From NCBI RefSeq assembly GCF_000012285.1, contig NC_007181.1:1710001-1742000 (forward strand): a stretch of DNA of 32,000 bases. The letters are read 5' to 3'. The notes under the pieces were generated by a model. It saw only the letters and a program-made list of their open reading frames with translations. It searched no databases and was not told the origin of the DNA. The DNA is from Sulfolobus acidocaldarius DSM 639. GTDB lineage: Archaea; Thermoproteota; Thermoprotei_A; Sulfolobales; Sulfolobaceae. The position numbers and the translations under genes are program-made. Positions 1 to 25,732 of this stretch are shown here, piece after piece. Within the stretch, counting starts at the first letter, position 1, and each line of letters opens with the position of its first letter.

Positions 1-348
1 CTCTTTCCTAGTCTCAGAAAAATATCAGATTTCCAATCAGGTGTTAAAGTAGTTAAGAGAAGTAAAGTGATCAGTGTTGCAGACGAGTTAATTTCTAACG
101 ATCTATTATTTGATGTTAACATAATTTACGCGTTTAAGAGAAGAGGATATACCATAAAGGAAGTTGAAATTCAATACTTAAATGACGAGGATGGCAGCAA
201 AATAGGAAAATCCTTGTCAAAAACTATAGTCCTTATGGCGTTATCACTTCTCAGGCTTAGAATTTTCTATTCTCCCTTCAAAAAATTACTTTACTATCCA
301 TTAATGGTAAGGTTCCAGCGTTGGGTATTTAATAGACTGAACTCCTAG
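1..348 (+). CDS. GT2-family glycosyltransferase, C-terminal part (dolichyl-phosphate-hexose synthase-like); 5' end lies outside the window
   Basis: Frame 1 is open from nt 1 (LFPSLRKISDFQSGVKVVKRS...) to the TAG at 346-348. The D-x-QSG-x-K motif, the FDVNIIYAFKRRGYTIKEVEIQY..DGSKI block and a hydrophobic C-terminal tail match the usual C-terminal layout of Dol-P-sugar-forming GT2 enzymes. Confidence 0.7.
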   Translation, partial: LFPSLRKISDFQSGVKVVKRSKVISVADELISNDLLFDVNIIYAFKRRGYTIKEVEIQYLNDEDGSKIGKSLSKTIVLMALSLLRLRIFYSPFKKLLYYPLMVRFQRWVFNRLNS

Positions 349-1452: not shown

Positions 1453-2238
1453 ATGTGGTCGATTGAGATCCCAGTTGTTCATGGGAAGTATCTAAGAAAT
1501 GTGTTAGAGTCCATAAGAACCCAAACCTATCAAGACTTTGAGGTGATAGTCGTAAATTCTGGTGACGAATTGATATCAGACCTCATAAGAGAATATGGGT
1601 TTAAGGAGGTCAGGGAGAAAGTGAACTTGTTAAATGCTAGATATTTAGCCCATAAAAATTCATCAGGAGAAAAGGCTTTAGTTCTTGATGAGACTAGAGT
1701 TCTAAGGAAAGATACTTTAGAAATACTATCAGAAATAGAACACGATATGATAATCGTGGGAGAGGCTGAAGTAGGGAATTCGTCTTTGTGGATAAGATTA
1801 GCACAACTTGACAAGGATAACCTCATAAATTGTAATGAACCAGATGCAGTTAAAGGTTTTTTACTTCCCAGAGCATTTAACTCAGAACTGCTTACTAAGA
1901 CATTTGAGTTGTTAAGGGATAAACTGGGGGATAAGTTTGATAAGGTGTTATATCCTGATCATGAGTTGATTTATTTTACGTCTCGAATGTTTTCCAATAA
2001 GTTACATGTTATTAGAGATTCATTGATTTTTCATTATGGCGATGAAACTTTCTTGAGCATAATTAGAAAATATTATAGGTATGGGAGGAGTTTAAGGATA
2101 TTGAAAGGAACTGAGTTTCAAATTTTGACTAAGACATCTAGAAAGAAGAGGAAAATATGCAAGGGAAGTAAACTTGGACTGTATACCCTGTATGTGGTTA
2201 GAGGCATTCCATTCATATTAGGCTACTTATTAGGATGA
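1453..2238 (+). CDS. GT2-family glycosyltransferase with hydrophobic C-terminus
   Basis: 261-aa ORF. The N-terminus IPVVHGKYLRNVLESIRTQTYQDFEVIVVNSGDE is the classic GT-A/GT2 opening (hhP.hN....L...L.Sl..Qt...hEhIVVdd). An LVLDET acidic motif follows, and the C-terminus has a TM-like tail (LGLYTLYVVRGIPFILGYLLG). Confidence 0.7.
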   Translation: MWSIEIPVVHGKYLRNVLESIRTQTYQDFEVIVVNSGDELISDLIREYGFKEVREKVNLLNARYLAHKNSSGEKALVLDETRVLRKDTLEILSEIEHDMIIVGEAEVGNSSLWIRLAQLDKDNLINCNEPDAVKGFLLPRAFNSELLTKTFELLRDKLGDKFDKVLYPDHELIYFTSRMFSNKLHVIRDSLIFHYGDETFLSIIRKYYRYGRSLRILKGTEFQILTKTSRKKRKICKGSKLGLYTLYVVRGIPFILGYLLG

Positions 2239-2335: not shown

Positions 2336-4666
2336 CTATTTACTTTCACGCAACCTTTCACTAATTAATAGAGATGACAAAATGAGTAACGGTAGGAATG
2401 ACACAAAAAATAGCACTTTTTTAACATTACTGTACTTGAACTCAATAGTTGCTGTGTAATTCCCAGATGGCATTAACCAGGCATTTCCAAATCCGTTAGC
2501 TACGTAGTGATTATTATTAATTTTACCGTTTACCGATAACTCCCACCAATGATTATATCCTGTTGTAAAGACAAGATAAAAGCTCGTGTCACTGTTTACT
2601 TTAACTACTATTTTATCGGGACTTTCAATTTGATACTCTAAATGCACATTACTCACGTTTGAGATATTTAGCTTAGGTCCTCCGTCAATAAATGAGACAT
2701 TAAAAGCCTTGAACTTTCCAGTAGAGAAATTCCAAAAGATTTCATCATAACTCAAATTACCTGTTACTCCACTGCTCGCATAAACTAAGGGTACGTTGCC
2801 TTCAACTTCATAAATCTTATACGGGCCATAACTTCCAACGTATTTCAACCCTTTTGAGGAGTTCAACATAATCTCAAAAGCTGTGAAATTCCATGGATAA
2901 GCCCCTGAAAAATTATAGTATGGTCTAGCGAATGTACCCGGACCTGGATATGCTCCTTTATTTAACACTACATATTTAACACCAAGTACCTTAAGTAAAT
3001 TTACTAGGTCTGTTATGTTGTTTGAAGGTAAATATTTAGCCAATACGAAGACAATGGGTGATTTGCCAGCATCCGAGATCACCTGGCCCATGAAGAAGTA
3101 GGTTTGGGGAGGTGTGTTTGATCCAACCCAGCTTCCATTGTAATATGTGGCTGTTGAGAGTGCTAACTGTATAGGTAAGAACAGTACGTTATTATAGCCA
3201 GCTTTCGACAACACCTCAGAAGATGCAACAAACCACTGAGGATAGTTAAAGGTATTCAGGATCTTCTCGTCTGTATTACCTAACAAAAGGCTGTAATAAC
3301 TAGTAGATGAATGAGTTATTCCTACATATGAAAATATTATAGAATTAATGAGCAAAAATAAATAGAGGAGAGCATTAACTATTCTTCTAGCGGGGAAGGG
3401 ATGTCTTCTTATGAAGTCATAACTTAGTATGAGGAGAATTAGGAGACTCAAGTTTATCATATAACCTACATGCACCGGTTGCACCATGTACGAAAAGCCT
3501 GTAATTAATATACCAAGAATAGGTAACTTGATTATATTCGATTCAATGAGTGGGACTAGACTTATCACGCCACTTTGGAGGAGGAAGAGTAATATCAGAG
3601 TTAAAGTTAAGGACAATCTTAGAGGGAAATACATCTTTGGCTGAGCTCTGAAGATGACACTGAATATTAATGGTACAACAACAGTTACACCGAGTCCAAT
3701 AGCTCCAACTAAGTAATTAAGGAGAGATGGAGTTACAGATATTGCAGGATAATAAAGCAGAAAAGATGTAGAAAGGTTATAGTTTTTATAGGTGTCCAAT
3801 AATTGATATACTACAACGTTTTGACCTGAAAACGTCTGGAGAGAGGAAGAATATGCTCCCGTGCTTGAGAAATAGAGATAAAAGATTAGGTAGGAGCCAG
3901 AAATTAAGAGAATAGTGAAGAAAAGTAAGAACCTAAATAAGACTTTTCTAACGGATAATTGGAATATCTTGATCAAGGGAACTGTTACCACTATCATAAA
4001 TAAAATAAAGTAAGCTGTCATTGTCTGAAACTCATATATCATGCCTCCTAGACCTATTAATGATACAAGTACAAGAAGATTTAATGATTGTTTAATTGAG
4101 TTGACTGTTATCAGTCTGAGATAAGAGTAGATTAGTAAAGGAGTAGTAAAGTAACCATATAGAGGTGGAACAATTTCCCCCATTATCCAATTTATACCAA
4201 TAGTGTAGTAGTCCAGAATGAAGAAGTAGGTGACAAAAATAACAAAGAGATAGTCCAATAGGTCAAGTTCTTGTCTCCTGAAGAACTTGAATGTATAGAG
4301 GATTCCTACATAAGCAACGTTTGCCATTAACTGCACAACTATCCACTGCACTAAACCTATTCCTAGACCTAGTATGTAAAATGGAACGCTTAATACAGCG
4401 AGAGGAAAGTAAGTAACAAATCCGAACTCAGGACCTCCCGGAAAGACTCCGTAGTTCCAAATATTCACGTATCTCTCCAGGAAGTTTAACGGGTTTAGGG
4501 GAAAACCCCCGTCCCAGTAATATATAACATCTCCCCTTGTGTATAACCACCAAAATACGGAAAATATCACGTTAAAAGCTATTAAAGACATGATGGGGAG
4601 TAATCTCGCTTTCTGAGAGAACACAATAGTCGTATGCTTTTTCATTATAAAAAATATGATGAACAC
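2336..4666 (-). CDS. Large polytopic membrane protein, GT-C-fold glycosyltransferase-like (pair A, paralogue of 8771-11044)
   Basis: 776-aa ORF. By eye the N-terminal ~480 aa holds more than 10 hydrophobic helices, with first-loop motif YWDGGFPLNP...WNYGVFPG. A sequon-rich soluble region follows (GVKYVVLNKGAYPGPG, YPWNFTAFE). It ends in GYNHWWELSVNGK..NHYVANGFGNAWLMPSGNYTATIEF plus a final TM helix. That C-terminal signature resembles YfhO/AftD-type GT-C proteins. The exact start (4666 or 4645) is uncertain. Confidence 0.65.
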   Translation of the reverse strand: MFIIFFIMKKHTTIVFSQKARLLPIMSLIAFNVIFSVFWWLYTRGDVIYYWDGGFPLNPLNFLERYVNIWNYGVFPGGPEFGFVTYFPLAVLSVPFYILGLGIGLVQWIVVQLMANVAYVGILYTFKFFRRQELDLLDYLFVIFVTYFFILDYYTIGINWIMGEIVPPLYGYFTTPLLIYSYLRLITVNSIKQSLNLLVLVSLIGLGGMIYEFQTMTAYFILFMIVVTVPLIKIFQLSVRKVLFRFLLFFTILLISGSYLIFYLYFSSTGAYSSSLQTFSGQNVVVYQLLDTYKNYNLSTSFLLYYPAISVTPSLLNYLVGAIGLGVTVVVPLIFSVIFRAQPKMYFPLRLSLTLTLILLFLLQSGVISLVPLIESNIIKLPILGILITGFSYMVQPVHVGYMINLSLLILLILSYDFIRRHPFPARRIVNALLYLFLLINSIIFSYVGITHSSTSYYSLLLGNTDEKILNTFNYPQWFVASSEVLSKAGYNNVLFLPIQLALSTATYYNGSWVGSNTPPQTYFFMGQVISDAGKSPIVFVLAKYLPSNNITDLVNLLKVLGVKYVVLNKGAYPGPGTFARPYYNFSGAYPWNFTAFEIMLNSSKGLKYVGSYGPYKIYEVEGNVPLVYASSGVTGNLSYDEIFWNFSTGKFKAFNVSFIDGGPKLNISNVSNVHLEYQIESPDKIVVKVNSDTSFYLVFTTGYNHWWELSVNGKINNNHYVANGFGNAWLMPSGNYTATIEFKYSNVKKVLFFVSFLPLLILSSLLISERLRESK

Positions 4667-4740
4667 TTCAATTTAACTTTACAAGGTGATAAATTAAAGA
4701 TGCTTACGCTATCTATGTCTACAACATCCTAAAACAATCC

Positions 4741-5088
4741 TTAAACTCCTTGCAGGTTTTGAAGTAAAAACTTTAAGAGTAAAGAGGAGAGATGGAAATC
4801 AATTTCTAAGAATTTTGAAACATTAGCCTCCCACACGAAATTCTTCCTTATCTTCACATTAATTATTATCTTGAACATCTTACTCGCCAAACTAACATGA
4901 TCATCTCTACAACATTTCTGAAAATCACTACTTAGCATGTTATAATATCTTCTCACGTGCTTACTGTCCAAGAGAAAATAATAACCCCACTTGCTAAAGT
5001 ACTTTACCTTTCTCACATACCTTACACTACTCATATATCTTGACATAGTCAAAAACCTTCCAATTGCTTTTAGGAACTTTTTTATCAT
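4741..5088 (-). CDS. Hypothetical basic protein (only weak, unverified sulfotransferase-like motifs)
   Basis: 115-aa ORF with no TM segment. Its ATG overlaps (ATGA) the stop of a 31-39 aa upstream ORF (5085-5204). YYFLLDSKHVRRYYNML and IRKNFVWEAN loosely recall sulfotransferase 3'-PB and RKG..GdW regions, but the spacing is compressed. Confidence 0.35.
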   Translation of the reverse strand: MIKKFLKAIGRFLTMSRYMSSVRYVRKVKYFSKWGYYFLLDSKHVRRYYNMLSSDFQKCCRDDHVSLASKMFKIIINVKIRKNFVWEANVSKFLEIDFHLSSLLLKFLLQNLQGV

Positions 5089-5285
5089 CTCACAAAATCT
5101 CTAAGATAGACTCCTAAGCTCACGCTCTTTTTACAAAGCTTAGTCTTCTTGAGAAGCTCGATTGTTGTATCCTTAAACATGTCAACGATCAATCCCTTTC
5201 CCACTAAGACCTTGATACTTAAGTATGAGTGTTAATATTTCTACATGGACTGGATAAGGTTAAGAATTAATTCACTAAAGAATAT

Positions 5286-6353
5286 ATGCATTATGTGGAG
5301 ATTAGTTTAATTACGACATACCTTAAGAAGTTTGACGGTCAAAGTAGGGCAACAATAAACTTTGCTAAAGGTTTGAGTAAGCATGGAGTAAAAGTAAAGA
5401 TTGTGTCTCTTGGGCTAGAGGATGGTATTAAAGAGGAGCTTAAAAACAATGACATAGAGGTAATTAGTCTAGATCAGCCTAGAAGCGTTTATTATGATAT
5501 ATCTCTACTCTTTGGTTCTCCAAGCCCATTTAAGAAAATTGCCAATTATGTAAACGACTCTATTAGCATAGTTACCAATGATGAGGCGGTACCGGTGGTA
5601 AATAGTATCAAAGGACGTATTATATACTGGAGTCAGGGAGCATTAATGAGCGTGTTCCTATGGAAGCCATTTTACGCAAAAAAGGGTACTCTAAAGAGAT
5701 TAGTTAGTCTTTTCTTAGTTAGAAACTCCCACAGGTTCTCAGACTTTGTATCGAAGTATCATATGTTATTGGCTAATAGTAATACAAGCGCTTTAGTTGT
5801 TTCCCTTTTCTACAACAGGGTCCCACAGGGAGTTGTATACCCACCCATAGATATTGATAGTTTTAAATATTCTTCTGAAAAAGAAAAGTTTGCATTAGTG
5901 ATTTTAAAGAGATCATACCCTACTCATATAGACTTGCTGAGAAAGATTGCCAATTCTGGGATAAAGTTGAAAGTGATTGGGTATAAAATCGACGGGGCAG
6001 AATATTTAGGGGACAGAGTAGATGAAGAGAGGTTAAGAGATTTGTACTCGTCTGCATTAGTTACATTATACCCTGTTGATTTTGAGTACTTCGGATATAT
6101 TCCAGTAGAGTCCATGGCGTCAGGAACTCCAGTTATTGCTTTTAAGTATTCAGGTGGTCCTTCGGAATCCATAATACATGATGAAACAGGATGGTTAGTC
6201 TCTAACGAAAAAGAGTTTTATGAGGTTACTTTAAAAGTTTATGAGAGAGGTTACGAAGAAGCCTTACCACAAAAATGTAGAAATAGAGCCGAATATTTTT
6301 CTCTATTGACGCAGTCTAAGAGACTTTTAAGTTATATACATCAATCAGAGTAA
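5286..6353 (+). CDS. GT4-family (GT-B) glycosyltransferase
   Basis: 355-aa ORF. The C-terminal block FEYFGYIPVESMASGTPVIAFKYSGGPSESIIHDETGWLV is the canonical GT4 E-x7-E nucleotide-sugar-binding motif. Confidence 0.8.
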   Translation: MHYVEISLITTYLKKFDGQSRATINFAKGLSKHGVKVKIVSLGLEDGIKEELKNNDIEVISLDQPRSVYYDISLLFGSPSPFKKIANYVNDSISIVTNDEAVPVVNSIKGRIIYWSQGALMSVFLWKPFYAKKGTLKRLVSLFLVRNSHRFSDFVSKYHMLLANSNTSALVVSLFYNRVPQGVVYPPIDIDSFKYSSEKEKFALVILKRSYPTHIDLLRKIANSGIKLKVIGYKIDGAEYLGDRVDEERLRDLYSSALVTLYPVDFEYFGYIPVESMASGTPVIAFKYSGGPSESIIHDETGWLVSNEKEFYEVTLKVYERGYEEALPQKCRNRAEYFSLLTQSKRLLSYIHQSE

Positions 6354-6445
6354 AGGTTGAAAGATAAAGTAAATCTGTTATTAGTAAAAGCACGACTTAC
6401 TATTCCTCTAACACGTTTGTATATGGAGGTCCTCTTAATCTATTG

Positions 6446-7402
6446 TTAACTAAACATCGAATTACTCCTTAACATCCTAAGGTAGATCTTCCTGGCTAAC
6501 TTGTTTGATGCTGAATTAATTACAGAAAGTAGAAACATAAACCAGTCCCACTTAATCCACTGAAGATCCTTAGCAATTCTCCAAACGTAACTTAATCCAC
6601 TTTTCTCGCCTGACATAATCTTATATAACAACTCTCTATACACTTTCATCTTTTGAATGTTCTCCATAATTATTTTGTCAGTGAACACCTTTTCGAATAA
6701 CTCAGCATCCTCTAATTGCATCTTGAATACCTCAAGGTTAACTGTATCTTTACTTTGCTGAACTCTCCTGTAAAAAGTTAGGGTGTTTTTATCAATAGCT
6801 ATATTTCTCCTTTTCTCCCAAGCATAAAAGAAAAGGAAAGTGTCAGCCGTTAACTTCACTTTTCCTAGAAGATCAGATGACTCCACAGCAAAATTTCTGT
6901 CGAGAACTATAGAACTTACATTAAATCCTGCCTTATGTTTATGATAAAGAGTGTTAAGTAATGACCTTGAATTATTAGATGGCTTAAAAACGTCTACTTC
7001 ATTCTTTACCTCAATCTTGTTGGGGATCTGGTCGGAGAAAGTTAATGCTGCATTATGATAAAAATCTATTCTACTTATGCTGGCTCTATTGCCAAATGTA
7101 TTTAGGACCCTTGGAATCTTGTCAGGGTGAAATAAGTCATCGTCTTCTACAAAGAATATAATATTACCACTACTCCTACTGATGCCATCCTTTAACTTAC
7201 CACCCAATGTCGTATCCTTCGAATAAATGTTAATCACAGGCAGGGAATCAAGATAAGAATCTATCCTCTCGTCAAGGAAGTTTTTAACAACTATAATCTC
7301 GGAGTCATAATTCTTGGTGTAAATTAGGAGGGAGTCAATTAAACTAGTTAGGAACTGTTTCCTATTATATGAGGTTATAATGACACTGAAGTCTTTGGGC
7401 AT
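6446..7402 (-). CDS. GT2-family glycosyltransferase
   Basis: 318-aa ORF. FSVIITSYNRKQFLTSLIDSLL is the GT2 N-terminal motif and IIFFVEDDDLFHPDKI is the DxD region. It is the last gene of a tightly spaced minus-strand trio (gaps of 25 and 14 bp). It is an intact paralogue of the broken gene at 27837-28892. Confidence 0.8.
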   Translation of the reverse strand: MPKDFSVIITSYNRKQFLTSLIDSLLIYTKNYDSEIIVVKNFLDERIDSYLDSLPVINIYSKDTTLGGKLKDGISRSSGNIIFFVEDDDLFHPDKIPRVLNTFGNRASISRIDFYHNAALTFSDQIPNKIEVKNEVDVFKPSNNSRSLLNTLYHKHKAGFNVSSIVLDRNFAVESSDLLGKVKLTADTFLFFYAWEKRRNIAIDKNTLTFYRRVQQSKDTVNLEVFKMQLEDAELFEKVFTDKIIMENIQKMKVYRELLYKIMSGEKSGLSYVWRIAKDLQWIKWDWFMFLLSVINSASNKLARKIYLRMLRSNSMFS

Positions 7403-7416
7403 ATCTTCCCTTCTCC

Positions 7417-8745
7417 TTATACTTTCATTAAATCCTCATATAGCCTTTCGCTTACATTCCTCCATCCTGTATGATCCCTTATGAAACTCTCTACCTTGTC
7501 GTTGTAGACAATCTTCCTGTAGTCCTCCCATCCAGCCTTGAAAAGATTTGCCACCTCTTTTGACATGGCATCTATATCGTACTCCCTTACGAACTTAACT
7601 GCAGGAAGACCATTGAATACACTCTTTGGTCCAGGAATATCATAACTAACTACAGGTGTGCCAACAGTTATGGACTCAAGAATACTGAGGGAGAACGTGT
7701 CCTCATGAGAAGGATAAACTACACATTTAGCCTTACTTACCACATCATAAAGCTCATTACCAGTCAGATAACCTTTGTATACTATGTGGTCTGACAAGCC
7801 CATTTCCTCCACAAGGTTAAAGAAGTAATCCTGAAAACTCTCATTCTTCTTTCCTCTAATGTCCTCGGGAAATTTCCCTACGATAAAGAGTTTAGCCTCT
7901 TTCACTATCTCCTTGACTTTAGAGAGGATAAAGGGTAGTTCCAAAGTACCTTTTAAAGGTAAAAGTCTTGCAAAAAACACCATATAGTCATCCTTATCAG
8001 TCCTCTTCTCCCTAAACGAGAGTAGCTCTCCTTCTATGGCTGCTGCAGGATAAAGTACTTTACCCTTTCCTGAATTAAGGACTCCGAGAGAGTTTAGTTG
8101 CCCTGGAGACATACCATAAATCCTTACCACATTTGGGGAGTTCTTCAATTTCCTCACTATAAACTTCTCCCTAAATCCCTTATACAAAGTGTAGACTATC
8201 TTATTCTTATGATTAATAAATACGTCAATTGGAAAACCCCTTAATCTGTTCTTTAAATAACGTAATACATTTAGGGGTACTCCAAAAAAGTAGTCATGCG
8301 ATGCAATACCTTGAAGAAGTACCGAACTTCTAAGATCTGCTTTGTAAGATATATACATGACTTCACCATATTTAAGCGAAGGCTCCATTAAAAGCTCTGA
8401 AAACTTAAACATCCTGTAAAACCTATATGACGGACCGTAGTTTATATCTAGTAGGATTGTCCTATTACCCTTTAATTTCTCCACAAACTTCCTCAGCCTC
8501 TCAACTGGGTCCAGGTCTTCCTCTAGGTATTCAAAGCCTATGATCTTGTCCGATATTTTGCTCAAGGACGAATATGAATTATTCCCATCGAGGAAGGAGT
8601 TCAACTTAGGTAAAATGAAAACGTTGTCTTTATCCAGAAGATGTTTCACCAAATTATATTCAACCTTCTCCCCACCACCTTCAAAAGAGTTGTTCTTCAA
8701 TATCCTTAGGCTCGTCAGAATAGCTATCGGTTTTTCCATTATCAA
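7417..8745 (-). CDS. GT4-family (GT-B) glycosyltransferase
   Basis: 442-aa ORF. PSHEDTFSLSILESITVGTPVVSYDIPGPKSVF is the GT4 E-x7-E motif. Confidence 0.8.
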   Translation of the reverse strand: MIMEKPIAILTSLRILKNNSFEGGGEKVEYNLVKHLLDKDNVFILPKLNSFLDGNNSYSSLSKISDKIIGFEYLEEDLDPVERLRKFVEKLKGNRTILLDINYGPSYRFYRMFKFSELLMEPSLKYGEVMYISYKADLRSSVLLQGIASHDYFFGVPLNVLRYLKNRLRGFPIDVFINHKNKIVYTLYKGFREKFIVRKLKNSPNVVRIYGMSPGQLNSLGVLNSGKGKVLYPAAAIEGELLSFREKRTDKDDYMVFFARLLPLKGTLELPFILSKVKEIVKEAKLFIVGKFPEDIRGKKNESFQDYFFNLVEEMGLSDHIVYKGYLTGNELYDVVSKAKCVVYPSHEDTFSLSILESITVGTPVVSYDIPGPKSVFNGLPAVKFVREYDIDAMSKEVANLFKAGWEDYRKIVYNDKVESFIRDHTGWRNVSERLYEDLMKV

Positions 8746-8770
8746 GTATAATCACATTTTAGCCATTATA

Positions 8771-11044
8771 TTATTTTTCCCATCTTACATGACGAAGTCG
8801 AATCCTATCTTTCACTAGAATTATCAAAGCGATAACTACTGGACTCAGTAAGGAGATTATGAAAAAGTACGGAATAATGTTAGCCGGATAAAACTCTACA
8901 ATAGCAGTATATTCACCAGCTGGCATTAGCCAACTGTTAGCATAACCATTTGCCAGATAATGACTTTTCACCTCATGACTCTTAATTATGACTCTCCAAA
9001 AATTACTATAACCCTCATCTAGCACCAAGTAAAATGGCTTTGTAGCGTTGACCTTTACAACATACATCACGTTGTTGTAGTTATTTATAACTGTCATTTT
9101 AACGCCTGAAATGTTAGTTATGTTTACAGCACCATTACCGTAAATTAAGCTCTGCCTCTGAGCAGTCAATAGATTGTTGGAGTAGGTTAGGAAAATTTGG
9201 TTATAGTCCAGTGTATTTACAACTATACCCTCTGAGGCATAGATTAGGCTGACATTTAGGTTTATCCGATAAACGTTGTAGTAGTTGTTCTCCAAAGTTA
9301 ATGTCGCATTAGGTAAGTGAGAAAGGTAATACTCAAATTTACTGAAATTCCATGGGTATCCACCAGCTTGATATAATGGCACTCCTGGACCAGGATACTC
9401 ATTCTTGCTCAATACTATGTACTTTATACCAAGCAGGACTAGGAAATTTGTCACATTCTTAAAATTTCCAGGGAAGTACAAGTAAAGCGGGTTCGTAACC
9501 GTGTTGGGTATGGGAAGCTTCACAATTGTGCCCGTTATGAACTGAGAGAGAGGGTCAATATTGTGCAATGAAGCCATGGTAACGTTATCATGAATGTAAT
9601 ATATACCTGCAATATACTGTAAAGGTAATAATAATACATTATAGTTTTCTGCATTCTGGTGTAAATAGTAACCTACTTCTAAAAGCTCCTCTGGAGGATA
9701 GAACACATTAGTTGCTGCAACTGGTAAATAATCAAAGGTCTTTATTTGTTGATAAGAATCAGAGACAACAAAAGTGGACATGTAAACACTGACCAGTATT
9801 GACAGGAAAAGTAGCGATAGTATTTTCTTACGATTACTATTGAAAGTCCTCAAAAAGATAACTATTGCATACGAAACTAAAAAAGAGAGGAAAAATGCTA
9901 CGGGGAATCCAGAGAAAACAAATTGAACGCTAAACATCAATCCTACAGCAATGAAACCTATGGAAGATTGAGACAATGAAAATAATGGGACTAGGTTTAC
10001 GAAACCTACTGTTGCCCCTCCGATGATCAGAAGACTGAAAAAGGAAGGGTTGAATAACTTATTATCAGTCTTATTCTTCACAGACAAAATAGAGATTATA
10101 ACTAATACGACGAAGAGGAGTAAACCAATCCAAGTATACCGATTAGGAGCGAAGAGTGAAAAGAGTGACAGAGGTGTAAAACTGTTATACTGATCTTGTA
10201 ATTCAGCAATAGCCAGTGGCATCCCGTTAAACTGTCCATAAACACCGCTAGAGAAGGCATTTAAGGATGCAAAATAAACATTATATAACTCCTCCAATCC
10301 GGCTATAATTGCTAAACCATATAAAATGAGATTCTTTGTGAGGAATAACTTGAAGCTAATATTCTTTCTCCTCTCAGTGTATAAGGATATGAACATGATT
10401 AGGTAAATTACTAAGATCCAAAGGGTGTAGGAGGCAGTAACAAATTGATTACCACTTAACATGATGATATAAATAGGCAAAAGGGTCAACGTCAGGTAAT
10501 TTCTCTCCAAAAATACATACTTCATTGCGAAGTGGAGTAGGAGTGGGAATAGCATATAAAAGACAAAGAACGGATAATTAACCCCTAATATCGGTGGTCT
10601 ATATCCAAAGAACCCCCATGTATACATAAACCCTCCTAGAATCCCAGAGAGATAGATGTATGACTTATTCGTCTCTCTACCTAACAACGAGAGGAGAGTG
10701 TCAATCATCTTTACAAACCCAACTTTGGCTAAGAAAAAGAACAAGAGAAGGTATACCAGTTCTGATGTGGAGAAAGAGAGGTTAAGAACCTGAATTAAAA
10801 GGTAAAATATTAGTGCAGTGAAGAGGTTATGCTGTGAATAGGAGAAAGGAGCACCAGGAAAGAAATTATAATTCCAATAATCTACAAATATCTTATAAAG
10901 CCAGAGGGAAGGTATGAACGGAAAGCCTGAATCTATCCAGTAAATTATCCCACCTTTCAAGTAGTGTTCGAGAAGGAATAGGTCTAACAATAAGGTAGGT
11001 GGATAAAAGATAAGATCAAGCCGGCGAGCCCTGAGAAAGTCCAT
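8771..11044 (-). CDS. Large polytopic membrane protein, GT-C-fold glycosyltransferase-like (pair A, paralogue of 2336-4666)
   Basis: 757-aa ORF with the same architecture as 2336-4666. Shared motifs are YWIDSGFPFIP...WNYNFFPG, GIKYIVLSKNEYPGPG, GGYPWNFSKFE, GYSNFWRVIIKSHEVKSHYLANGYANSWLMPAGEYTAIVEF and a terminal TM helix. A TTTATATA box lies about 30 nt upstream of the ATG. Confidence 0.65.
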   Translation of the reverse strand: MDFLRARRLDLIFYPPTLLLDLFLLEHYLKGGIIYWIDSGFPFIPSLWLYKIFVDYWNYNFFPGAPFSYSQHNLFTALIFYLLIQVLNLSFSTSELVYLLLFFFLAKVGFVKMIDTLLSLLGRETNKSYIYLSGILGGFMYTWGFFGYRPPILGVNYPFFVFYMLFPLLLHFAMKYVFLERNYLTLTLLPIYIIMLSGNQFVTASYTLWILVIYLIMFISLYTERRKNISFKLFLTKNLILYGLAIIAGLEELYNVYFASLNAFSSGVYGQFNGMPLAIAELQDQYNSFTPLSLFSLFAPNRYTWIGLLLFVVLVIISILSVKNKTDNKLFNPSFFSLLIIGGATVGFVNLVPLFSLSQSSIGFIAVGLMFSVQFVFSGFPVAFFLSFLVSYAIVIFLRTFNSNRKKILSLLFLSILVSVYMSTFVVSDSYQQIKTFDYLPVAATNVFYPPEELLEVGYYLHQNAENYNVLLLPLQYIAGIYYIHDNVTMASLHNIDPLSQFITGTIVKLPIPNTVTNPLYLYFPGNFKNVTNFLVLLGIKYIVLSKNEYPGPGVPLYQAGGYPWNFSKFEYYLSHLPNATLTLENNYYNVYRINLNVSLIYASEGIVVNTLDYNQIFLTYSNNLLTAQRQSLIYGNGAVNITNISGVKMTVINNYNNVMYVVKVNATKPFYLVLDEGYSNFWRVIIKSHEVKSHYLANGYANSWLMPAGEYTAIVEFYPANIIPYFFIISLLSPVVIALIILVKDRIRLRHVRWEK

Positions 11045-11167: not shown

Positions 11168-11947
11168 ATGAAAAAATTTATAATTGAATCCAGGGGAGTA
11201 AAAGTTAGATTGTACAGTCCTACAATAAAGAGACTAATTGAACTCTTGAGACAATACAAGAAAACTTACAAGAACTGGTATAGCGTGATGATAGATATAT
11301 TCAGAAGTAAGGATAGGGTCAAATGTGCGTTTAAATATGGAGAAGTAATTGAACTGACTAGGCTAGAGGCTATTCTGTTGTCAGGGTTGGACGTAAAGAA
11401 GTTGACCGATGATGAGGTCACTTTTTCCTTTCTTGGTAAGAACCTGATCTTAAGGGGTTGGAAGGATGGGTTCCCAGGAGATGCATTTAACGACTATCGA
11501 AAGGCAGATGTAAGGGAAAAGAAGGTATTAGACATTGGGGCAGCGATAGGAGACTCACCAATATACTTCAGCCTAATGGGGGCGAAAAGTGTAGTAGCAG
11601 TTGAGCCTGATCCGAAAAAGGTCAAGTATATGAAAGTTAACCTGGAACTAAATGACATAAGAAACGTAATAGTAGTTGATAAGGCTCTATCAACAGTCGA
11701 TAATGAAAGAGAAGTAAGATTGAATACACTTCTAGAGAAGTTCGGACCTTTTGATATAGCCAAGATTGACTGTGAAGGGTGTGAAAGGAGAGTTATCTCG
11801 GACATAAAAGGTATACCTGAAATAATTATTGAATGGGATTTTGAATATAGAAGTTTAGCCGAGAAGTTAAGGGAGGAAGGTTATGAGGTAAAGGTTGAAA
11901 AGCATGCTAGAGACCTTGGAATGATTTATGCTAGGTTTAAAAGGTAA
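11168..11947 (+). CDS. FkbM-family SAM-dependent methyltransferase
   Basis: 259-aa ORF. VLDIGAAIGDSPIYFSLMGAKSVVAVEPDP is the SAM-binding motif I plus the acidic strand-2 end. DIAKIDCEGCERRV is the FkbM-type K-h-D-h-E-G-x-E motif. Confidence 0.8.
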   Translation: MKKFIIESRGVKVRLYSPTIKRLIELLRQYKKTYKNWYSVMIDIFRSKDRVKCAFKYGEVIELTRLEAILLSGLDVKKLTDDEVTFSFLGKNLILRGWKDGFPGDAFNDYRKADVREKKVLDIGAAIGDSPIYFSLMGAKSVVAVEPDPKKVKYMKVNLELNDIRNVIVVDKALSTVDNEREVRLNTLLEKFGPFDIAKIDCEGCERRVISDIKGIPEIIIEWDFEYRSLAEKLREEGYEVKVEKHARDLGMIYARFKR

Positions 11948-12487: not shown

Positions 12488-14938
12488 GTGCGTAGGCTAA
12501 AGTTATCAAGAGATAAATTAAGCTTCAAAACACTGATAAACAACTATCACCTGATAATTCTGGCACTTTCTTTCGTATTATTTAACATTATTATAAACTT
12601 CTTGTTTTTCGTAGTGCTTTATAATCTCAACTATTCGTCCTACAATTTGAGCATGTTCATACAAGAGTTGTATTCCGCATCTCAAGGAAAGCCCTTCTAT
12701 GATACTATAAATTTACTTTTTAGGGGAATTCCATATGGGTTAGCCATACATCCTTACCTCATACTATATATTTTAGTACCCCTGTACAAGGCATTTCCGT
12801 CTTGGTTGACCCTATCGTTAGTGGAATCTCTTGTACTAACATTGGCTTCCCTCTACCTTTATAAGATAGCTCGAGAGGTATTACCTCAGAGTAAGTTACT
12901 TCCAGTTATATCATCTATGATCTTCTTATTTAATCCTTTAACAGTTGCATCTTTTCTCTCTGGCTTCCAGGTTTTATCATTCATACCCCTCTTTTATCTA
13001 GCGTCCTACTATTACTACCTTACTAAAAGATGGAAGCTATTCATAATATCAACAGCATTGTTATTACTCACATCGGAGGCATCATACCCAATTGTATTGA
13101 CTTATATGGTTCTTTTGATTATAAAGAACAAAAATAATAACAAGTTACTTAGCAAGTCGTTCTTTAGGAGAAATATACTTTTCTTATCTGTGATTGTAGC
13201 TACTATAGTCATTGCATTAACACTTCCAACTTTTCTGCAAACTAAGTATACTGGTACATCACATAGTATCTTACAAGACATTGAACAATATTACTCGTTA
13301 AATTACGTTAATTATGATATACTTAATAAACTGGAATACTGGCTACTTGTATTTGGATCATTTGGTGCATTATCACTTTTCTCTCCTCTAGAATTATTAC
13401 CAGCATTACCCTACATTTTACTTACTGTTATGTCATTTTATCCAAATTATTACACACCAGGGTATTACTACTTCTTCCTAGTACTACCTATGTTAGCTGT
13501 TGCTTTAGTTTACACCTTGAAAAAAATACATGATATAAAAAGGGTAGTAAGAGTAGCATTAGTGTTTGTCCTTCTTATTGGTGTTTTCTTCAATCCCTAC
13601 ATCTATACTACTTTTCAATCCTATAACTCCCCAAAAATAGTCTCGCCCGGCTATCCTCCATCCTTTAATACTACATTAGCTAGTGTTAACCAAATGTACA
13701 TTAATGAGCTTACTTCACTTATTCCACCAAACTCCAGTATAGTAGCAACTACTGATCTCTTACCGTTTGTCTCAAATAGTATGAATGCATATGTTCTTCC
13801 ACCATACTCTAACGTAAATTTAAATATATTGAAAAATTTAAACGTATTGAAACGATTAGCACCTACACCTAATTACTTATTAATTGACGGGTCATTTTTG
13901 ACCCCGTCTTTTAATTCAATTGAAGGAAATTATGGTATATATGCTGAGACCAATGGTATATCATTATATAAGTTGAACTACTCAGGAGAAGTGAAACTAT
14001 TTGCCCCGTTAATTCAGTTTATCCCTGCCTACGATTTTTACATTTGGTCTTATGTTCCACCCACACAAGTTAATGTGGTAAATGATAATCAATTCGGGAA
14101 AGTTTATATGTACGTTAAAAATGGTTATAAATCCGATGGAGCTACTCTGTGGTTTGGTCCTTACATTCATTTACCCCAAGGTACATATCTCGCTGAATTC
14201 TATCTTAAATTTGATAACGTCACTACTAACGGTAGTTTACTTAGGATAGACATTAATATAAATCCTTATGGGTCTCCAATTTACAAAATAATTAACTCGA
14301 GTGACATCGTTCAAGGAAAATGGATGAAATTCGATCTATTATTTACTATTCCTTATAATGAGCTATTATCGAGTGTGGAATTCAGAGGCTTCTCTATATC
14401 AAATCAATCCAACATTTATTTTGCAGGTGTCAAGTTAATTCAGATTAGTCCATATGTAAACTACATATATCCTGCCTGTGATTTCGCCACTATTAATGGT
14501 ATTAAGCAGACCCAAGGAAATTTCATACTAGGTGGTTGTGACATAGTATTAAATAGTAGTACAGCTATCTGGTATGGTCCTTATATAACCTTACCAGAAG
14601 GAAATTTCACTGCCTATTATATTTTCTCTATGGACTTAAATAAACGGAACTTTACCCCTAACACTACTATACTTACTTTAGATATATCCTATGACATAGG
14701 CAAATACATTTTAAACACTTTGAACATCAACGATAGTGAACTCATTAGATATAATGTTAATGGAGTTTATCTAGTCCCCTTGACGTTTTCGCTTAACCAA
14801 ACTACAAGTTATGTTGAATTTAGAGGATTTAATTTTAATGCCGAAGGAGAAGTATATTTCTACGGTGCAATAATAGTGCCAGACTATGATAATTATACCC
14901 CTAGTTTTTTAATAAATTATCTCAATTCTCTACAATAG
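12488..14938 (+). CDS. DUF2079-like polytopic membrane protein (GT-C-like) with duplicated C-terminal soluble module (pair B)
   Basis: 816-aa ORF. The N-terminal ~380 aa is multi-TM, with the DUF2079-type first-loop region (YNLSMFIQELYSASQGKPFYD). The C-terminal ~430 aa is soluble and sequon-rich. It contains two copies of a module marked by LWFGPYIHLPQGTYLAEFY...VEFRGFSISNQSNIYFAGV and IWYGPYITLPEGNFTAYYI...VEFRGFNFNAEGEVYFYGA, at about nt 14090-14460 and 14530-14890. Confidence 0.7.
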   Translation: MRRLKLSRDKLSFKTLINNYHLIILALSFVLFNIIINFLFFVVLYNLNYSSYNLSMFIQELYSASQGKPFYDTINLLFRGIPYGLAIHPYLILYILVPLYKAFPSWLTLSLVESLVLTLASLYLYKIAREVLPQSKLLPVISSMIFLFNPLTVASFLSGFQVLSFIPLFYLASYYYYLTKRWKLFIISTALLLLTSEASYPIVLTYMVLLIIKNKNNNKLLSKSFFRRNILFLSVIVATIVIALTLPTFLQTKYTGTSHSILQDIEQYYSLNYVNYDILNKLEYWLLVFGSFGALSLFSPLELLPALPYILLTVMSFYPNYYTPGYYYFFLVLPMLAVALVYTLKKIHDIKRVVRVALVFVLLIGVFFNPYIYTTFQSYNSPKIVSPGYPPSFNTTLASVNQMYINELTSLIPPNSSIVATTDLLPFVSNSMNAYVLPPYSNVNLNILKNLNVLKRLAPTPNYLLIDGSFLTPSFNSIEGNYGIYAETNGISLYKLNYSGEVKLFAPLIQFIPAYDFYIWSYVPPTQVNVVNDNQFGKVYMYVKNGYKSDGATLWFGPYIHLPQGTYLAEFYLKFDNVTTNGSLLRIDININPYGSPIYKIINSSDIVQGKWMKFDLLFTIPYNELLSSVEFRGFSISNQSNIYFAGVKLIQISPYVNYIYPACDFATINGIKQTQGNFILGGCDIVLNSSTAIWYGPYITLPEGNFTAYYIFSMDLNKRNFTPNTTILTLDISYDIGKYILNTLNINDSELIRYNVNGVYLVPLTFSLNQTTSYVEFRGFNFNAEGEVYFYGAIIVPDYDNYTPSFLINYLNSLQ

Positions 14939-15043: not shown

Positions 15044-17485
15044 TTACTTAAATTGAAAGTTATAAAGGAACAATTGATAATTATTTTCAAAATACTTTAA
15101 AGTATATGTATCATTTGAATAAGTTACTAATACTCCATAAAAGTATATATGAGCAGGCAGGTTAAAGTTGAATCCTCTAAACTCTATAAAACTCGTCGTT
15201 GAATTTAAAGTAATATTTACCTTTACTAGAAACAGATTATCATTAATTCTTAAGAGATCATTGGCAGTAATGCCCTTAGATACAATTATCTTACTAACCT
15301 TCTCAATAGGTATATCTATGTTCAATATTGTAGTGTTTTTATATAGACTAAGATCTGCGGTGTTATCTATGCCGATTATATAATACACAGTATAGTTGCC
15401 CTTAGGTAAGGTCACATAAGGACCGTACCATATAAATTCTGAAGTCTCATCACTGACTATATAAGGTGCTAAAAATGGGCTGTAAACTTTCTGACCGTGA
15501 TAAACATCAAACATGCTGGCAGGATAGAAATAGAAAGAGTAAGGACTTATCTCAGTTATGTTAACACCTCCGAAATATATAGTTATATTTGGATAGTAAG
15601 ATAAACCTCTAAACTCTAGTTGTTCAAAGTAGTCTTTTATCGTGAATATTATATTAAACACCATCCACTTCCCTTGAACAACATCATTTGAAGATATGAT
15701 ACTATAATTCAATGTACCTGAGGACGTACTTACAACCTCAACTCTCATAAGGTTTGTAATATAAAGTGGGACGTTTTCTAATTTGACGTAGAACTGAGCT
15801 ACGTAAGTACCTGTAGGTAGGTTGTAATAGGGACCATACCAGAGAGGTGTATTTAATGGATAAGTGCCATTTTTATATACGTAAACTGTGCCAATTTGAG
15901 GATCATTTACTTCAAAATAAGTCGGTGATCCTACATAGAAGTTTAATGCAGAGAAATACTTTGAAAACGGTTTAAAGTAGACTATGGGACCAGTGTAATT
16001 TGCCTTAAGTAAGAGTAGACCGTTTGCCTCTGCCAACATACTGTAATTTCCTCGGATGTAACTTAGAAACAATTCAGGTTCACTGAGGAAAATATAGTCT
16101 GGAAATCTTGGTGAATATTTTAATTGGCTAGATGTTATTAAACTACCATATAACGGGTAGGAATTAAGGTTATTTGCCACAAATGGAAATAAATTATTAC
16201 TAGCTAACACAACAGCATTTTCAGGTATTAATGAAGTCATATTAGATATGACCTCGTAATTTGAATTAGCTAAACTTAAATTGAAGGGTGGAACATACCC
16301 TCCACCGTAATATCTTGGGGAATTCATAGCTTGTAAGTTGTTATATGTAAAAGGATTTAGTAGAAATGAAATAAAGAGAACTATAACTAGAGCTACCTTA
16401 ATTACTCCTGGTCTTTTCAACAATGTATTTAATGAATGTAGTGAGGCTGTTGCCATCGGTCCTAATGCGATAAACACGTATTGGTAACCTATTCCTGAAT
16501 ACGTCAACATTATTGAAAATAAAGATGTGCCAATATATGGTAGAGCTGGCAGTAACTCTATGGGGGAGAACAACGGAAGGAAACCGAAGGAAGCGAAATA
16601 CATAAGCCAAAAACTCGACTTAAAGCTCCACGCATAATTTATTCCTTTTAGAAATAAATAAGTTATAGTAGAGTATAGATAATGGGTAGTAGAGGAATGA
16701 GAAGAGGTTGCGAAAATAGAGTTAAGATAATGAGGTATAGTTAGCCCCATTATTATTGATATAATAATAAAAATTAAAAATAATGTAGTATTTTTAAGAA
16801 AAAATTTAATTTTTGTTCCTTTTTTATAACTTTTTATTATCAAGTAAATCATAAATAGGATAACTATTGGGTACGCCGCTTCCATGGATAATAGTAAAAA
16901 GATAATGAATGTGGAAAACCTTCTCCAAGCTTTAATAAGGTAATAATAATATGCACCTAAATAAAATAAAGGAAAAAACACTTCTGCGTGGAAATCATAT
17001 AGGTAACCAGATATAGAAAGAGGATTAAATAAATACAGGATAGTAAATATTAGTGGTAATGTTCTAAATCCATTTTCCTTAAATAATGTAGAGCCTATCT
17101 TATATACATATATCGATGATAATGATATAATAAGAGATTGAGTTAATGAAAGCGTTAGCCAAGATGGGAAAAAATAGTATATCGGTAATAAGAAGAACAT
17201 TATGAAATATGGGTGGATACCCAATCCACTTATTACTCCATAATATGTAAAATTAGGCGAATCATAAAATATTCTTCCATGCAGAGTAGAATAAAGCTCC
17301 TGTAAGAAAATACCTAGGTCAAAAGCACCAGAGTAAAGATCATATAACCTTATATAAAACATCAAATTCACAAGAATGTTGAAAATGACATTCATAATAA
17401 TCAAGACAACATAGTCTCGTTTTAAGTATCGGGATAAGGAAAGTATTGTATTATAATTAACATAGAATGCATAACGTCTAGCCAT
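15044..17485 (-). CDS. DUF2079-like polytopic membrane protein (GT-C-like) with duplicated C-terminal soluble module (pair B)
   Basis: 813-aa ORF. It has the canonical first-loop motif GAFDLGIFLQELYSTLHGRIFYDS. It shares FPSWLTLSL, FSP(I/L)ELLPALPYI, S(S/N)D(I/V)VQGKWM and EFRGFNFN with 12488-14938. Its two C-terminal modules are marked by PLWYGPYYNLPTGTYVAQFY and FIWYGPYVTLPKGNYTVYYI. Confidence 0.7.
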   Translation of the reverse strand: MARRYAFYVNYNTILSLSRYLKRDYVVLIIMNVIFNILVNLMFYIRLYDLYSGAFDLGIFLQELYSTLHGRIFYDSPNFTYYGVISGLGIHPYFIMFFLLPIYYFFPSWLTLSLTQSLIISLSSIYVYKIGSTLFKENGFRTLPLIFTILYLFNPLSISGYLYDFHAEVFFPLFYLGAYYYYLIKAWRRFSTFIIFLLLSMEAAYPIVILFMIYLIIKSYKKGTKIKFFLKNTTLFLIFIIISIIMGLTIPHYLNSIFATSSHSSTTHYLYSTITYLFLKGINYAWSFKSSFWLMYFASFGFLPLFSPIELLPALPYIGTSLFSIMLTYSGIGYQYVFIALGPMATASLHSLNTLLKRPGVIKVALVIVLFISFLLNPFTYNNLQAMNSPRYYGGGYVPPFNLSLANSNYEVISNMTSLIPENAVVLASNNLFPFVANNLNSYPLYGSLITSSQLKYSPRFPDYIFLSEPELFLSYIRGNYSMLAEANGLLLLKANYTGPIVYFKPFSKYFSALNFYVGSPTYFEVNDPQIGTVYVYKNGTYPLNTPLWYGPYYNLPTGTYVAQFYVKLENVPLYITNLMRVEVVSTSSGTLNYSIISSNDVVQGKWMVFNIIFTIKDYFEQLEFRGLSYYPNITIYFGGVNITEISPYSFYFYPASMFDVYHGQKVYSPFLAPYIVSDETSEFIWYGPYVTLPKGNYTVYYIIGIDNTADLSLYKNTTILNIDIPIEKVSKIIVSKGITANDLLRINDNLFLVKVNITLNSTTSFIEFRGFNFNLPAHIYFYGVLVTYSNDTYTLKYFENNYQLFLYNFQFK

Positions 17486-17863
17486 GACAGATATAGTTAT
17501 AAGGTCAAGTTTATATTTTTAACTTAAACCATTTAATGTATTTTGTAGAGTACGTCTTTTTATTTATTTTAGCCCAATTATTATGTTAAATTTTTTAATA
17601 ATAAAATAAATAGATGAAATTATTTAATAATGATAAAAATCTGTTCTTTTATGTTAGTGTTTGCTGTTATCATAAAAATGACATGAAACGTACAGCTCAA
17701 AATTTTTCATGATCGATGTAAAAAATATTACCAACTAGGGAAACCCTAGAATTCGTATTTTACTTATAAAAAGAAATAAAATTCTGCTCATTCCTCTAAG
17801 TTTTTTAGGTAAAAGGTTTATAGCTAGTGAAACTTTTTCCTTTCTTTATAATTTTTAAAGATT

Positions 17864-17894
17864 TTATAATTATAAAAATAGTTATAATTATAAA
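17864..17894. repeat. AT-only direct repeat of TTATAATTATAAA (two copies, 18-bp period), built from tandem TTATAA palindromes
   Basis: ttataattataaa occurs at 17864-17876 and again at 17882-17894. A third partial copy (tttataatt) lies near 17845. All sit inside a long A/T block. Confidence 0.6.
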
Positions 17895-18079
17895 TTCCTT
17901 TGAAATTAAATAGATAAAAGAAATTAATATTAATACCAACCTTTAAGTTCATGGTTATAGAGTGGTAATATTCCTTGATTTACACTAAAATGTAGGTAAG
18001 TAAGCTTGTTGTTATAATATTTATGATTTGGGAATTGATGCACTAAATATCCTTAGAGTTTGGGAATAAGATACAAGGA

Positions 18080-24880: not shown

Positions 24881-24966
24881 TTCAGCGTGCTTGGTATATA
24901 AGGTCTTATAATAATCTACAACGTCTAAAGTAGTCTAACCTTTAACGTATTGGTTCAATAAATTTT

Positions 24967-25674: not shown

Positions 25675-25732
25675 TTAGATGCACCTTTACCAAGCAAGGT
25701 CTCTCCATAGCTAACTCTCTTTTCCTTCCTCA

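Follow-up and report, generated by a model that had tools for sequence, protein, structure and literature searches.

The DNA analysed here is a 32,000-nucleotide stretch of the Sulfolobus acidocaldarius DSM 639 chromosome (NC_007181.1, positions 1,710,001 to 1,742,000; hereafter the window), and our subject is a pair of genes within it, Saci_1912 and Saci_1917, whose products are diverged membrane proteins that resemble the GT-C glycosyltransferase AftD. The genome is one contig of 2,225,959 bp and holds exactly two paralogues of this type. Both open reading frames (ORFs) have precisely the coordinates and lengths, 776 and 757 amino acids (aa), that a sequence-only reading of the window had claimed for them:

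2336-4666, minus strand: paralogue 1 (P0001), Saci_1912 by position; AftD-like GT-C membrane glycosyltransferase of clade I, 776 aa when read from a GTG start
8771-11044, minus strand: paralogue 2 (P0002), Saci_1917 by position; AftD-like GT-C membrane glycosyltransferase of clade II, 757 aa, ATG start

The gene names were assigned through matches to published cloning primers, which place the pair in the saci_1904-1927 island of S. acidocaldarius, a group of surface-sugar genes. Primers for saci_1911, saci_1915 and saci_1916 (PMC11627041 supplement) each have an exact match in the window, at the start of an ORF of 261, 318 and 442 aa, respectively, and the tagged masses in print agree with these ORF sizes. 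With Saci_1911, Saci_1915 and Saci_1916 anchored in this way, the 776-aa gene is Saci_1912 and the 757-aa gene is Saci_1917 by position; the arrangement and sizes of the genes tabulated by Anderson et al. (2017) are consistent with this placement. Both genes are entered in that table as "hypothetical protein - No matches", and neither saci_1912 nor saci_1917 is mentioned in any main text of the literature that we searched. As the sequence-only reading had anticipated, no characterised archaeal orthologue was found.

A BLASTP comparison aligns residues 42-773 of Saci_1912 with residues 28-749 of Saci_1917, nearly the full length of both, at 27% identity (E 2e-54). The two are diverged paralogues, as had been proposed; the further proposal that identity is confined to short blocks did not hold, because the alignment runs nearly from end to end, though unevenly. 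Identity reaches 45% in the first loop after transmembrane (TM) helix 1, the most conserved region between the paralogues, 39% in a C-terminal beta-sandwich and 31% in the remaining soluble domain, and falls to 13-20% in the TM helices. Every motif that had been reported was recovered from both translations, namely YWDGGFPLNP/YWIDSGFPFIP, WNY..FPG, (V/I)KY(V/I)VL.K..YPGPG, YPWNF and, towards the C-terminus, HY(V/L)ANG(F/Y).N(A/S)WLMP(S/A)G.YTA..EF together with a last hydrophobic helix. The soluble domain is rich in N-x-S/T sequons, again as described, with 11 inside it against 2 in the remainder of Saci_1912, and 8 against 4 in Saci_1917. The Saci_1912 sequons cluster in residues 456-745, and the N- and C-termini of both proteins are basic. 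By this clustering and these basic termini, the soluble domain may be extracellular and N-glycosylated.

The start of Saci_1912 is ambiguous. Translation could begin at the GTG at 4666 (776 aa), at an ATG at 4645, which is residue 8 (769 aa), or at an ATG at 4591, which is residue 26 (751 aa); the database form of the protein has 751 aa (P0003). We favour the 769-aa form starting at residue 8, which appears to fit the N-termini of the orthologues and a basic MKKH...K.R tail best.

Fold, family and conserved residues

Structure prediction provided the clearest assignment. An initial AlphaFold model from 14 sequences had mediocre confidence (predicted local distance difference test, pLDDT, 66); AftD was already its top Foldseek match, in the same order as with the later model. 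The second, an AlphaFold2 model of Saci_1912 built from 66 sequences, is of high confidence (pLDDT 88.3, predicted template modelling score 0.90). The sequence-only reading had left its GT-C proposal to be decided by structural comparison, and a Foldseek search of the Protein Data Bank (PDB) with the second model returned GT-C enzymes at all of ranks 1-12 (E 1.7e-11 to 1.4e-2). Ranks 1-3 were taken with both models by AftD structures (6W98, 6WBY and 6WBX; E 1.7e-11 to 1e-9, probability 1.0). Further GT-C matches included AftA (E 1.6e-5), PglB, yeast STT3, ALG12 and ArnT, with Pmt4 at rank 14, and the beta-sandwich also matches GH127 (probability 0.99 over 77 columns). We regard the GT-C fold of the pair, as predicted by these models, as solid.

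The affiliation with AftD can also be followed through intermediate sequences. An exhaustive profile search (profile A1) of 1.84 billion representatives returned 1,898 proteins at E<=1e-3, of which 565 also passed E<=1e-10. The PF11847 GT-C_AftD model, whose cut-off is 26 bits, is matched by 7 of 38 full-length family members (best E 3.6e-39) and by six of eight longer members. The pair thus earns the label "AftD-like" from its fold and from transitive links between sequences, without a direct match to a family model. It is a subfamily that the Pfam and NCBIfam models miss, inside a larger known enzyme class. Of the YfhO/AftD-like signature first suggested for the two proteins, the AftD half is borne out through these intermediates and the YfhO half is not: the YfhO model PF09586 gave zero matches among the 46 homologues scanned. 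One UniRef record does name the Sulfurisphaera tokodaii orthologue 'YfhO family protein', a label that the Pfam scan did not reproduce. The motif WWD[YWF]G is absent from both proteins, and neither has a Pfam match to STT3, PMT or ArnT.

The model of Saci_1912 consists of a polytopic core of about 13 helices, an alpha/beta and beta-sandwich region at residues 452-745, and a single terminal helix. The conserved elements map onto the window as follows:

4511-4513, minus strand: first-loop Asp D52 of Saci_1912 (GAC, codon verified), by its conservation a candidate catalytic or donor-binding residue
10931-10933, minus strand: D38 of Saci_1917 (GAT, codon verified), which aligns with D52 of Saci_1912
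4436-4459, minus strand: second first-loop motif of Saci_1912, W70-N71...F75-P76-G77 (codons verified); Saci_1917 equivalent at 10853-10876
2462-2545, minus strand: C-terminal beta-sandwich motif of Saci_1912, W708...H720...N724...N728.W730...G735 (codons verified); Saci_1917 equivalent at 8915-8998
2342-2431, minus strand: C-terminal TM anchor of Saci_1912, residues 746-775, a helix in the model; Saci_1917 equivalent at about 8795-8884

A first-loop acidic residue is generally described as a hallmark of GT-C catalysis. Whether the one in this pair is conserved among orthologues had been named as a check on the sequence-only reading, and we found Asp at this position (D52/D38) in 14/14 close homologues, in 35/38 wider members and, within the 66-sequence set, in 59 of 62 sequences spanning the column. 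D52 lies 9 residues past the TM1 helix in the model of Saci_1912. Other loop residues are near-invariant too (W70 in 60 of the 62 sequences covering its column, G77 in 63/63). AftD itself requires two residues of its first loop, K39 and D41, for function (10.1101/2019.12.22.885152). Among the functional residues of AftD, K39, D41, E251, K361 and D474, the first-loop Asp alone could be matched to the pair, by position.

The strictest conservation across the family lies at the other end of the protein, in the beta-sandwich motif. All 66 members, drawn from many phyla, have W708, H720 and N728; N724 is kept in 63 and W730 in 64. The beta-strands of the Saci_1912 model span residues 674-743, and the W..H...N...N.W motif ends 11 residues ahead of the terminal TM helix, which also contains the strongest hydropathy peak of the protein (751-769). 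Given this short distance, the motif should lie near the membrane surface, where GT-C active sites are found. Its place in the model suggests a role in binding the acceptor or in completing the active site.

Because both paralogues retain all of these conserved residues, neither looks like a pseudo-enzyme. This bears on the suggestion that the two are non-catalytic proteins of the GT-C fold, for example MmpA-like scaffolds or helpers in the transport of lipid-linked glycans, to which the NCBIfam matches of some distant members to the MmpA trehalose-lipid delivery family could point. Those matches are weak, however, at 17-26 bits against a cut-off of 210 bits; the Asp and all the other invariant residues are kept in both copies, and conservation peaks in the loop and domain that contain the active sites of GT-C enzymes. 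We consider a non-catalytic role improbable.

History of the two copies and their genomic setting

A maximum-likelihood tree resolved three clades, each with 100% support in the Shimodaira-Hasegawa-like approximate likelihood ratio test (SH-aLRT). Saci_1912 falls into clade I together with one protein of Saccharolobus shibatae and relatives from metagenomes (40-45% identity). Clade II comprises Saci_1917, an S. tokodaii protein and further sequences (about 50% identity), and clade III contains Metallosphaera-type proteins. Each copy resembles proteins of other genera far more than it does its paralogue, and therefore either the split predates the genera or transfer has united the copies in the island. 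The duplication is old, as the sequence-only reading had inferred: in this tree the copies fall into separate, fully supported clades and each has orthologues in other genera.

The clades also differ in their first TM helix, within which clade II has a fixed Asp where clade I has Phe (alignment column F35 of Saci_1912):

10982-10984, minus strand: TM1 Asp of clade II, about residue 21 of Saci_1917, located by alignment

This buried residue probably explains why TM1 is missed by hydropathy in Saci_1917. Being specific to clade II, it could relate to a different lipid donor or partner.

Close homologues are few, and all are from Sulfolobaceae. Among 13 other genomes of the family that were sampled, two (G083 and G118) carry one intact copy each and a third (G111) carries a copy interrupted by stops; 107 genomes from other families of the order gave no match. 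The G111 homologue is broken by TAA stops, one in its C-terminal part and four in its N-terminal part, and is a decaying copy, consistent with these island genes being dispensable. The S. tokodaii and S. shibatae loci each have a single copy within 9 kb either side. More remotely, the wider family comprises about 1,900 representatives at 50% identity. Its named members, most of them recognised by the C-terminal motif, include archaeal relatives from Micrarchaeota, Marsarchaeota, Bathyarchaeia and Nitrososphaerota, and bacterial relatives from Patescibacteria (Woese-, Davies- and Levyibacteria), Actinomycetota (Acidimicrobiia and Bifidobacteriaceae) and some Gammaproteobacteria.

To account for the retention of both copies, the sequence-only reading had offered either distinct specificities or a heteromeric pair, and our data favour the former. 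An obligate heteromer of Saci_1912 and Saci_1917 would fit with the two genes lying 4 kb apart in the same island, and GT-C hetero-oligomers such as EmbA-EmbB and Pmt1-Pmt2 exist (PMC11127046). The sampled relatives, however, carry one copy each, or a disrupted one in G111, and the S. tokodaii and S. shibatae loci likewise have one, which makes an obligate heteromer unlikely. In addition, the two genes are neither adjacent nor co-oriented as a unit, and they have separate neighbours. Taken together, we judge a heteromer to be very improbable. The separate, fully supported clades and the single-copy state of the sampled relatives instead indicate that the copies are independent.

The island itself is variable. 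The segment 1,694,040-1,732,388 of DSM 639 shows six independent deletion patterns among natural Yellowstone strains and is wholly absent from some of them; its status as a hotspot for parallel deletion in nature has been interpreted as diversifying selection (PMC5554439). Since some natural strains lack the island, Saci_1912 and Saci_1917 are dispensable for growth. The genes around the pair are the following; those with L009 coordinates lie upstream of the window:

7417-8745, minus strand: Saci_1916, a GT4 (primer match; Pfam Glycos_transf_1), 25 nucleotides (nt) downstream of paralogue 2 on the same strand
6446-7402, minus strand: Saci_1915, a GT2 (primer match; Pfam GT2), 14 nt downstream of Saci_1916
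11168-11947, plus strand: Saci_1918, an FkbM-family methyltransferase (Pfam Methyltransf_21), divergent from paralogue 2
5286-6353, plus strand: Saci_1914, a GT4 (Pfam) near paralogue 1
4741-5088, minus strand: Saci_1913, a 115-aa basic, non-hydrophobic ORF (from its translation), 74 nt upstream of paralogue 1; no Pfam or NCBIfam match
1453-2238, plus strand: Saci_1911, a GT2 (primer match; Pfam GT2), convergent with paralogue 1
1-348, plus strand: 3' part of Saci_1909, a 244-aa GT2 (Pfam GT2) that begins 386 nt before the window (whole gene L009:17614-18348)
12488-14938, plus strand: Saci_1919, DUF2079 protein (PF09852, E 1e-127)
15044-17485, minus strand: Saci_1920, DUF2079 protein (PF09852, E 1e-131)
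19694-20845, minus strand: Saci_1921, a 383-aa GT4, with its position inferred from size (47.7 kDa tagged) and order only
L009:9689-11074, minus strand: Wzx-like flippase of the island
L009:11744-13675, minus strand: polytopic protein of 643 aa, no Pfam match
L009:15990-17516, plus strand: polytopic protein of 508 aa, no Pfam match

Part of this arrangement recurs in other genera. In S. tokodaii, the gene directly upstream of the orthologue encodes a GT2 with 29% identity to Saci_1915 (E 1e-20), and the one directly downstream encodes a GT4 with 48% identity to Saci_1916 (E 3e-111). Close to these, the cluster also contains genes for an FkbM methyltransferase and for dTDP-rhamnose, and transposases lie on one side of it. 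The combination of GT2, GT-C and GT4 (with FkbM) is therefore a conserved module common to S. acidocaldarius and S. tokodaii. The S. shibatae orthologue of Saci_1912 stands between an FkbM gene homologous to Saci_1918 (30% identity, E 6e-31) and a GT4 whose similarity to Saci_1914 is merely generic for GT4 enzymes; a Wzx-type flippase and transposases are close by. In a survey of 79 loci of distant relatives by single-sequence phmmer, a method of limited sensitivity, an FkbM methyltransferase occurred at 11, a GT4 at 13 and a Saci_1909-like GT2 at 10.

Saci_1909 is of interest as a possible source of sugar donors. Its best solved relatives are the Pyrococcus dolichol-phosphate-mannose synthase 5MLZ (E 1.2e-6) and the GtrB protein sll0501 (E 7e-4); with 244 aa it is shorter than the 374-residue 5MLZ chain, and similarity at this level is not specific within GT2. 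It may be regarded as a weak candidate, by sequence, for a dolichol-phosphate-hexose synthase that would supply all four GT-C-type proteins of the island, counting the two DUF2079 proteins.

A trio of the GtrA/GtrB/GtrV type formed with adjacent genes was considered and rejected. The 115-aa Saci_1913 is not a membrane protein and has no GtrA match, and the adjacent GT2 enzymes Saci_1911 and Saci_1915 do not qualify as dolichol-phosphate-sugar synthases; they resemble GalT1, heparosan-synthase or TarS-type enzymes.

The polytopic proteins of 643 and 508 aa next to the Wzx-like flippase are not related to the pair, and are possible Wzy-type polymerases or chain-length factors. They bear on a different use of the same fold, in which the pair would transfer dolichol-pyrophosphate-linked oligosaccharide repeats en bloc, in the manner of an oligosaccharyltransferase (OST), WaaL or Wzy, and would polymerise the exopolysaccharide (EPS) or anchor it to protein or lipid. 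The strong fold matches extend to PglB and STT3, whose donors are pyrophosphate-linked oligosaccharides; the island encodes a flippase of the Wzx kind and no Pfam-recognisable Wzy; and the reported EPS is of defined size, which implies controlled polymerisation (PMC9549778). Nevertheless, the best affiliation in both fold and sequence is with AftD and AftA, users of monophosphate-linked single sugars, and the pair has neither the WWDYG motif nor an STT3 Pfam match. Moreover, the 508-aa and 643-aa proteins are available as polymerase candidates, and two paralogues plus two DUF2079 proteins exceed the copies that a polymerase or ligase would need. We think an en-bloc role unlikely.

Elsewhere in the island there are several further GT4 genes. 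A 2.2-kb segment (17486-19693), which separates the second DUF2079 gene from the GT4 at 19694-20845, contains no ORF of at least 100 aa, a gap that is also seen in the Anderson et al. (2017) coordinates; G+C falls to 0.286 in 16001-18000. The published forward primer for Saci_1921 has no exact match in the window, and the cloned start may differ from the start of the listed ORF. The right-hand part of the island (24304-28892) contains short or truncated genes, including a 132-aa GT2 fragment (28494-28892), a 211-aa ORF with a PAPS-reductase domain (25733-26368), and ORFs of 104 and 185 aa without matches, a pattern that points to decay of genes at the edge of the island. Immediately beyond the glycan island, a 416-aa AAA_14/DUF4143 ATPase with a weak Mrr_cat match is encoded at 30627-31877 on the minus strand.

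Proposed role at the cell surface

We consider it fairly probable that Saci_1912 and Saci_1917 are anciently diverged AftD-type GT-C enzymes that transfer sugars from dolichol phosphate to a surface glycan at the outer face of the membrane, with different specificities. What we infer about catalysis, donor, acceptor and topology builds on the paralogy, fold, residue conservation, clade structure and gene context described above, and would run as follows. Cytoplasmic GT2 and GT4 enzymes would build a dolichol-linked glycan, which the Wzx-like flippase would move to the outer face of the membrane. There the pair, and perhaps the DUF2079 pair too, would add or extend sugars, drawing on dolichol-phosphate monosaccharides that possibly come from Saci_1909. 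The acceptor would be a surface glycan, probably the exopolysaccharide of the island. The first-loop Asp (D52/D38) would face outward, the acceptor would be held by the beta-sandwich, which carries the invariant W/H/N/N/W cluster, and the last TM helix would keep the soluble domain against the membrane. The two copies would act independently, differing in the sugar or linkage that they install.

Several observations weigh against this proposal. Neither protein matched any model in Pfam (E<=0.1) or NCBIfam, and searching PF11847 GT-C_AftD and PF09586 YfhO against the whole genome at E<=10 gave no match. Against PDB sequences, phmmer with a single protein gave nothing meaningful and the family profile gave no match. 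With no direct match in Pfam or among PDB sequences, membership of the AftD group therefore rests on intermediates and on the predicted structure, and the global TM-scores to AftD are modest (0.48), with a large root-mean-square deviation. The match that would make Saci_1909 a donor synthase is weak (E 1e-6, within the GT2 catalytic domain), and a GtrA-type flippase is absent beside the pair. Finally, that the saci_1904-1927 cluster synthesises EPS is a proposal from the literature (PMC9549778; PMC5961385).

The last point matters for the identity of the acceptor. The same enzymology could serve proteins, such as the S-layer or pilins with O-linked or other non-N-linked glycans, or membrane glycolipids, and variation of the island would then tune the surface against viruses. 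The GT-C class includes protein O- and C-mannosyltransferases, Pmt4 being the match at rank 14, and the parallel deletions of the island have been read as diversifying selection (PMC5554439); that the island serves EPS is, as noted, a proposal. On the other side, the AftD, AftA and Emb-type relatives act on polysaccharides, and the beta-sandwich resembles carbohydrate-binding or glycosidase accessory domains, as its GH127 match indicates. A Wzx-type flippase, together with dTDP-rhamnose genes in S. tokodaii, is moreover a typical polysaccharide-locus context. A protein or glycolipid acceptor seems rather unlikely to us, and we retain a polysaccharide as the probable target of the pair.

As for the sugar, one specific version of the proposal has the pair as ribofuranosyltransferases that install the ribose of EPS from dolichol-phosphate-ribofuranose. 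Ribose accounts for 26% of the monosaccharides of S. acidocaldarius EPS, a proportion that stays the same after RNase treatment (PMC9549778), and AftD-type and GT136 enzymes use polyprenyl-phosphate pentofuranose donors (PMC11127046). In the search for such a pentofuranose route, the three UbiA-family genes of the genome were located at 1.34, 1.39 and 2.17 Mb, distant from the island, and a UbiA homologue was found within 8 kb at 0/79 of the distant-relative loci, again with single-sequence phmmer and its limited sensitivity. We see little chance that this version is right. If true, it would give archaea an equivalent of two known systems, the decaprenyl-phospho-arabinose/ribose route of mycobacteria and the GT136 systems of bacteria (PMC11127046).

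According to a 2018 account, no archaeal exopolysaccharide pathway had been characterised (PMC5961385), and the saci_1904-1927 genes of the genetically tractable S. acidocaldarius are a standing candidate for one. The assignment of the pair as AftD-like GT-C proteins implies that part of the glycan would be built or decorated outside the membrane, and it singles out D52 and D38 for mutation. The kind of enzyme is a familiar one; what is gained is a testable role in an archaeal EPS pathway and a strictly invariant C-terminal motif.

Comparison with known systems

Within the island, the DUF2079 pair is the nearest parallel, consisting likewise of two diverged polytopic proteins of about 815 aa with large soluble domains. 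In contrast to Saci_1912 and Saci_1917, these belong to another Pfam family, and the two pairs have no terminal-anchor motif in common. A common origin or a common C-terminal module of the two pairs was rejected, as no pairwise similarity is detectable.

Among characterised enzymes, AftA, EmbA/B/C, PglB, STT3, AglB, ArnT and ALG12 have the GT-C fold in common with the pair and are significant Foldseek matches, with scores below those of AftD. The pair differs from this group in lacking the WWDYG motif and in having no Pfam match to STT3, PMT or ArnT.

Three-component systems such as GtrA/GtrB/GtrV and CsbB/GtcA/YfhO, together with Citrobacter youngae ORF12 (a GT136 with a carbohydrate-binding module, CBM), offer a functional analogy, since in these a GT-C protein, often with a CBM, decorates an exported polymer, and the polyprenyl-phosphate monosaccharide donor of the three-component systems is made by a GT2 (PMC11127046). 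The likeness in the island is Saci_1909, with its resemblance to dolichol-phosphate-mannose synthase and GtrB. The differences are that no small flippase of the GtrA, MATE or SMR type adjoins the pair, and that the Pfam model for YfhO found nothing in the pair or in the homologues tested.

AftD (6W98, 6WBX, 6WBY; PF11847) remains the best comparison, although it differs from the pair in several respects. The S. acidocaldarius proteins are about 760 aa long against about 1,400 for AftD, with identity of about 11%. Whereas AftD combines a GT-C soluble domain with three CBMs, the pair has one soluble region, and the helical bundle by which AftD binds an acyl carrier protein is replaced by a single C-terminal helix (10.1101/2019.12.22.885152). 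No donor pathway of the decaprenyl-phospho-arabinose type is encoded near the island. Nevertheless, AftD is the best structural match, and PF11847 recognises distant homologues of the pair above its threshold. Both have a polytopic GT-C core with a first-loop Asp, essential in AftD and near-invariant in the family of the pair, as well as a beta-sandwich domain, which in the pair would likewise be extracytoplasmic, and a C-terminal re-entry into the membrane.

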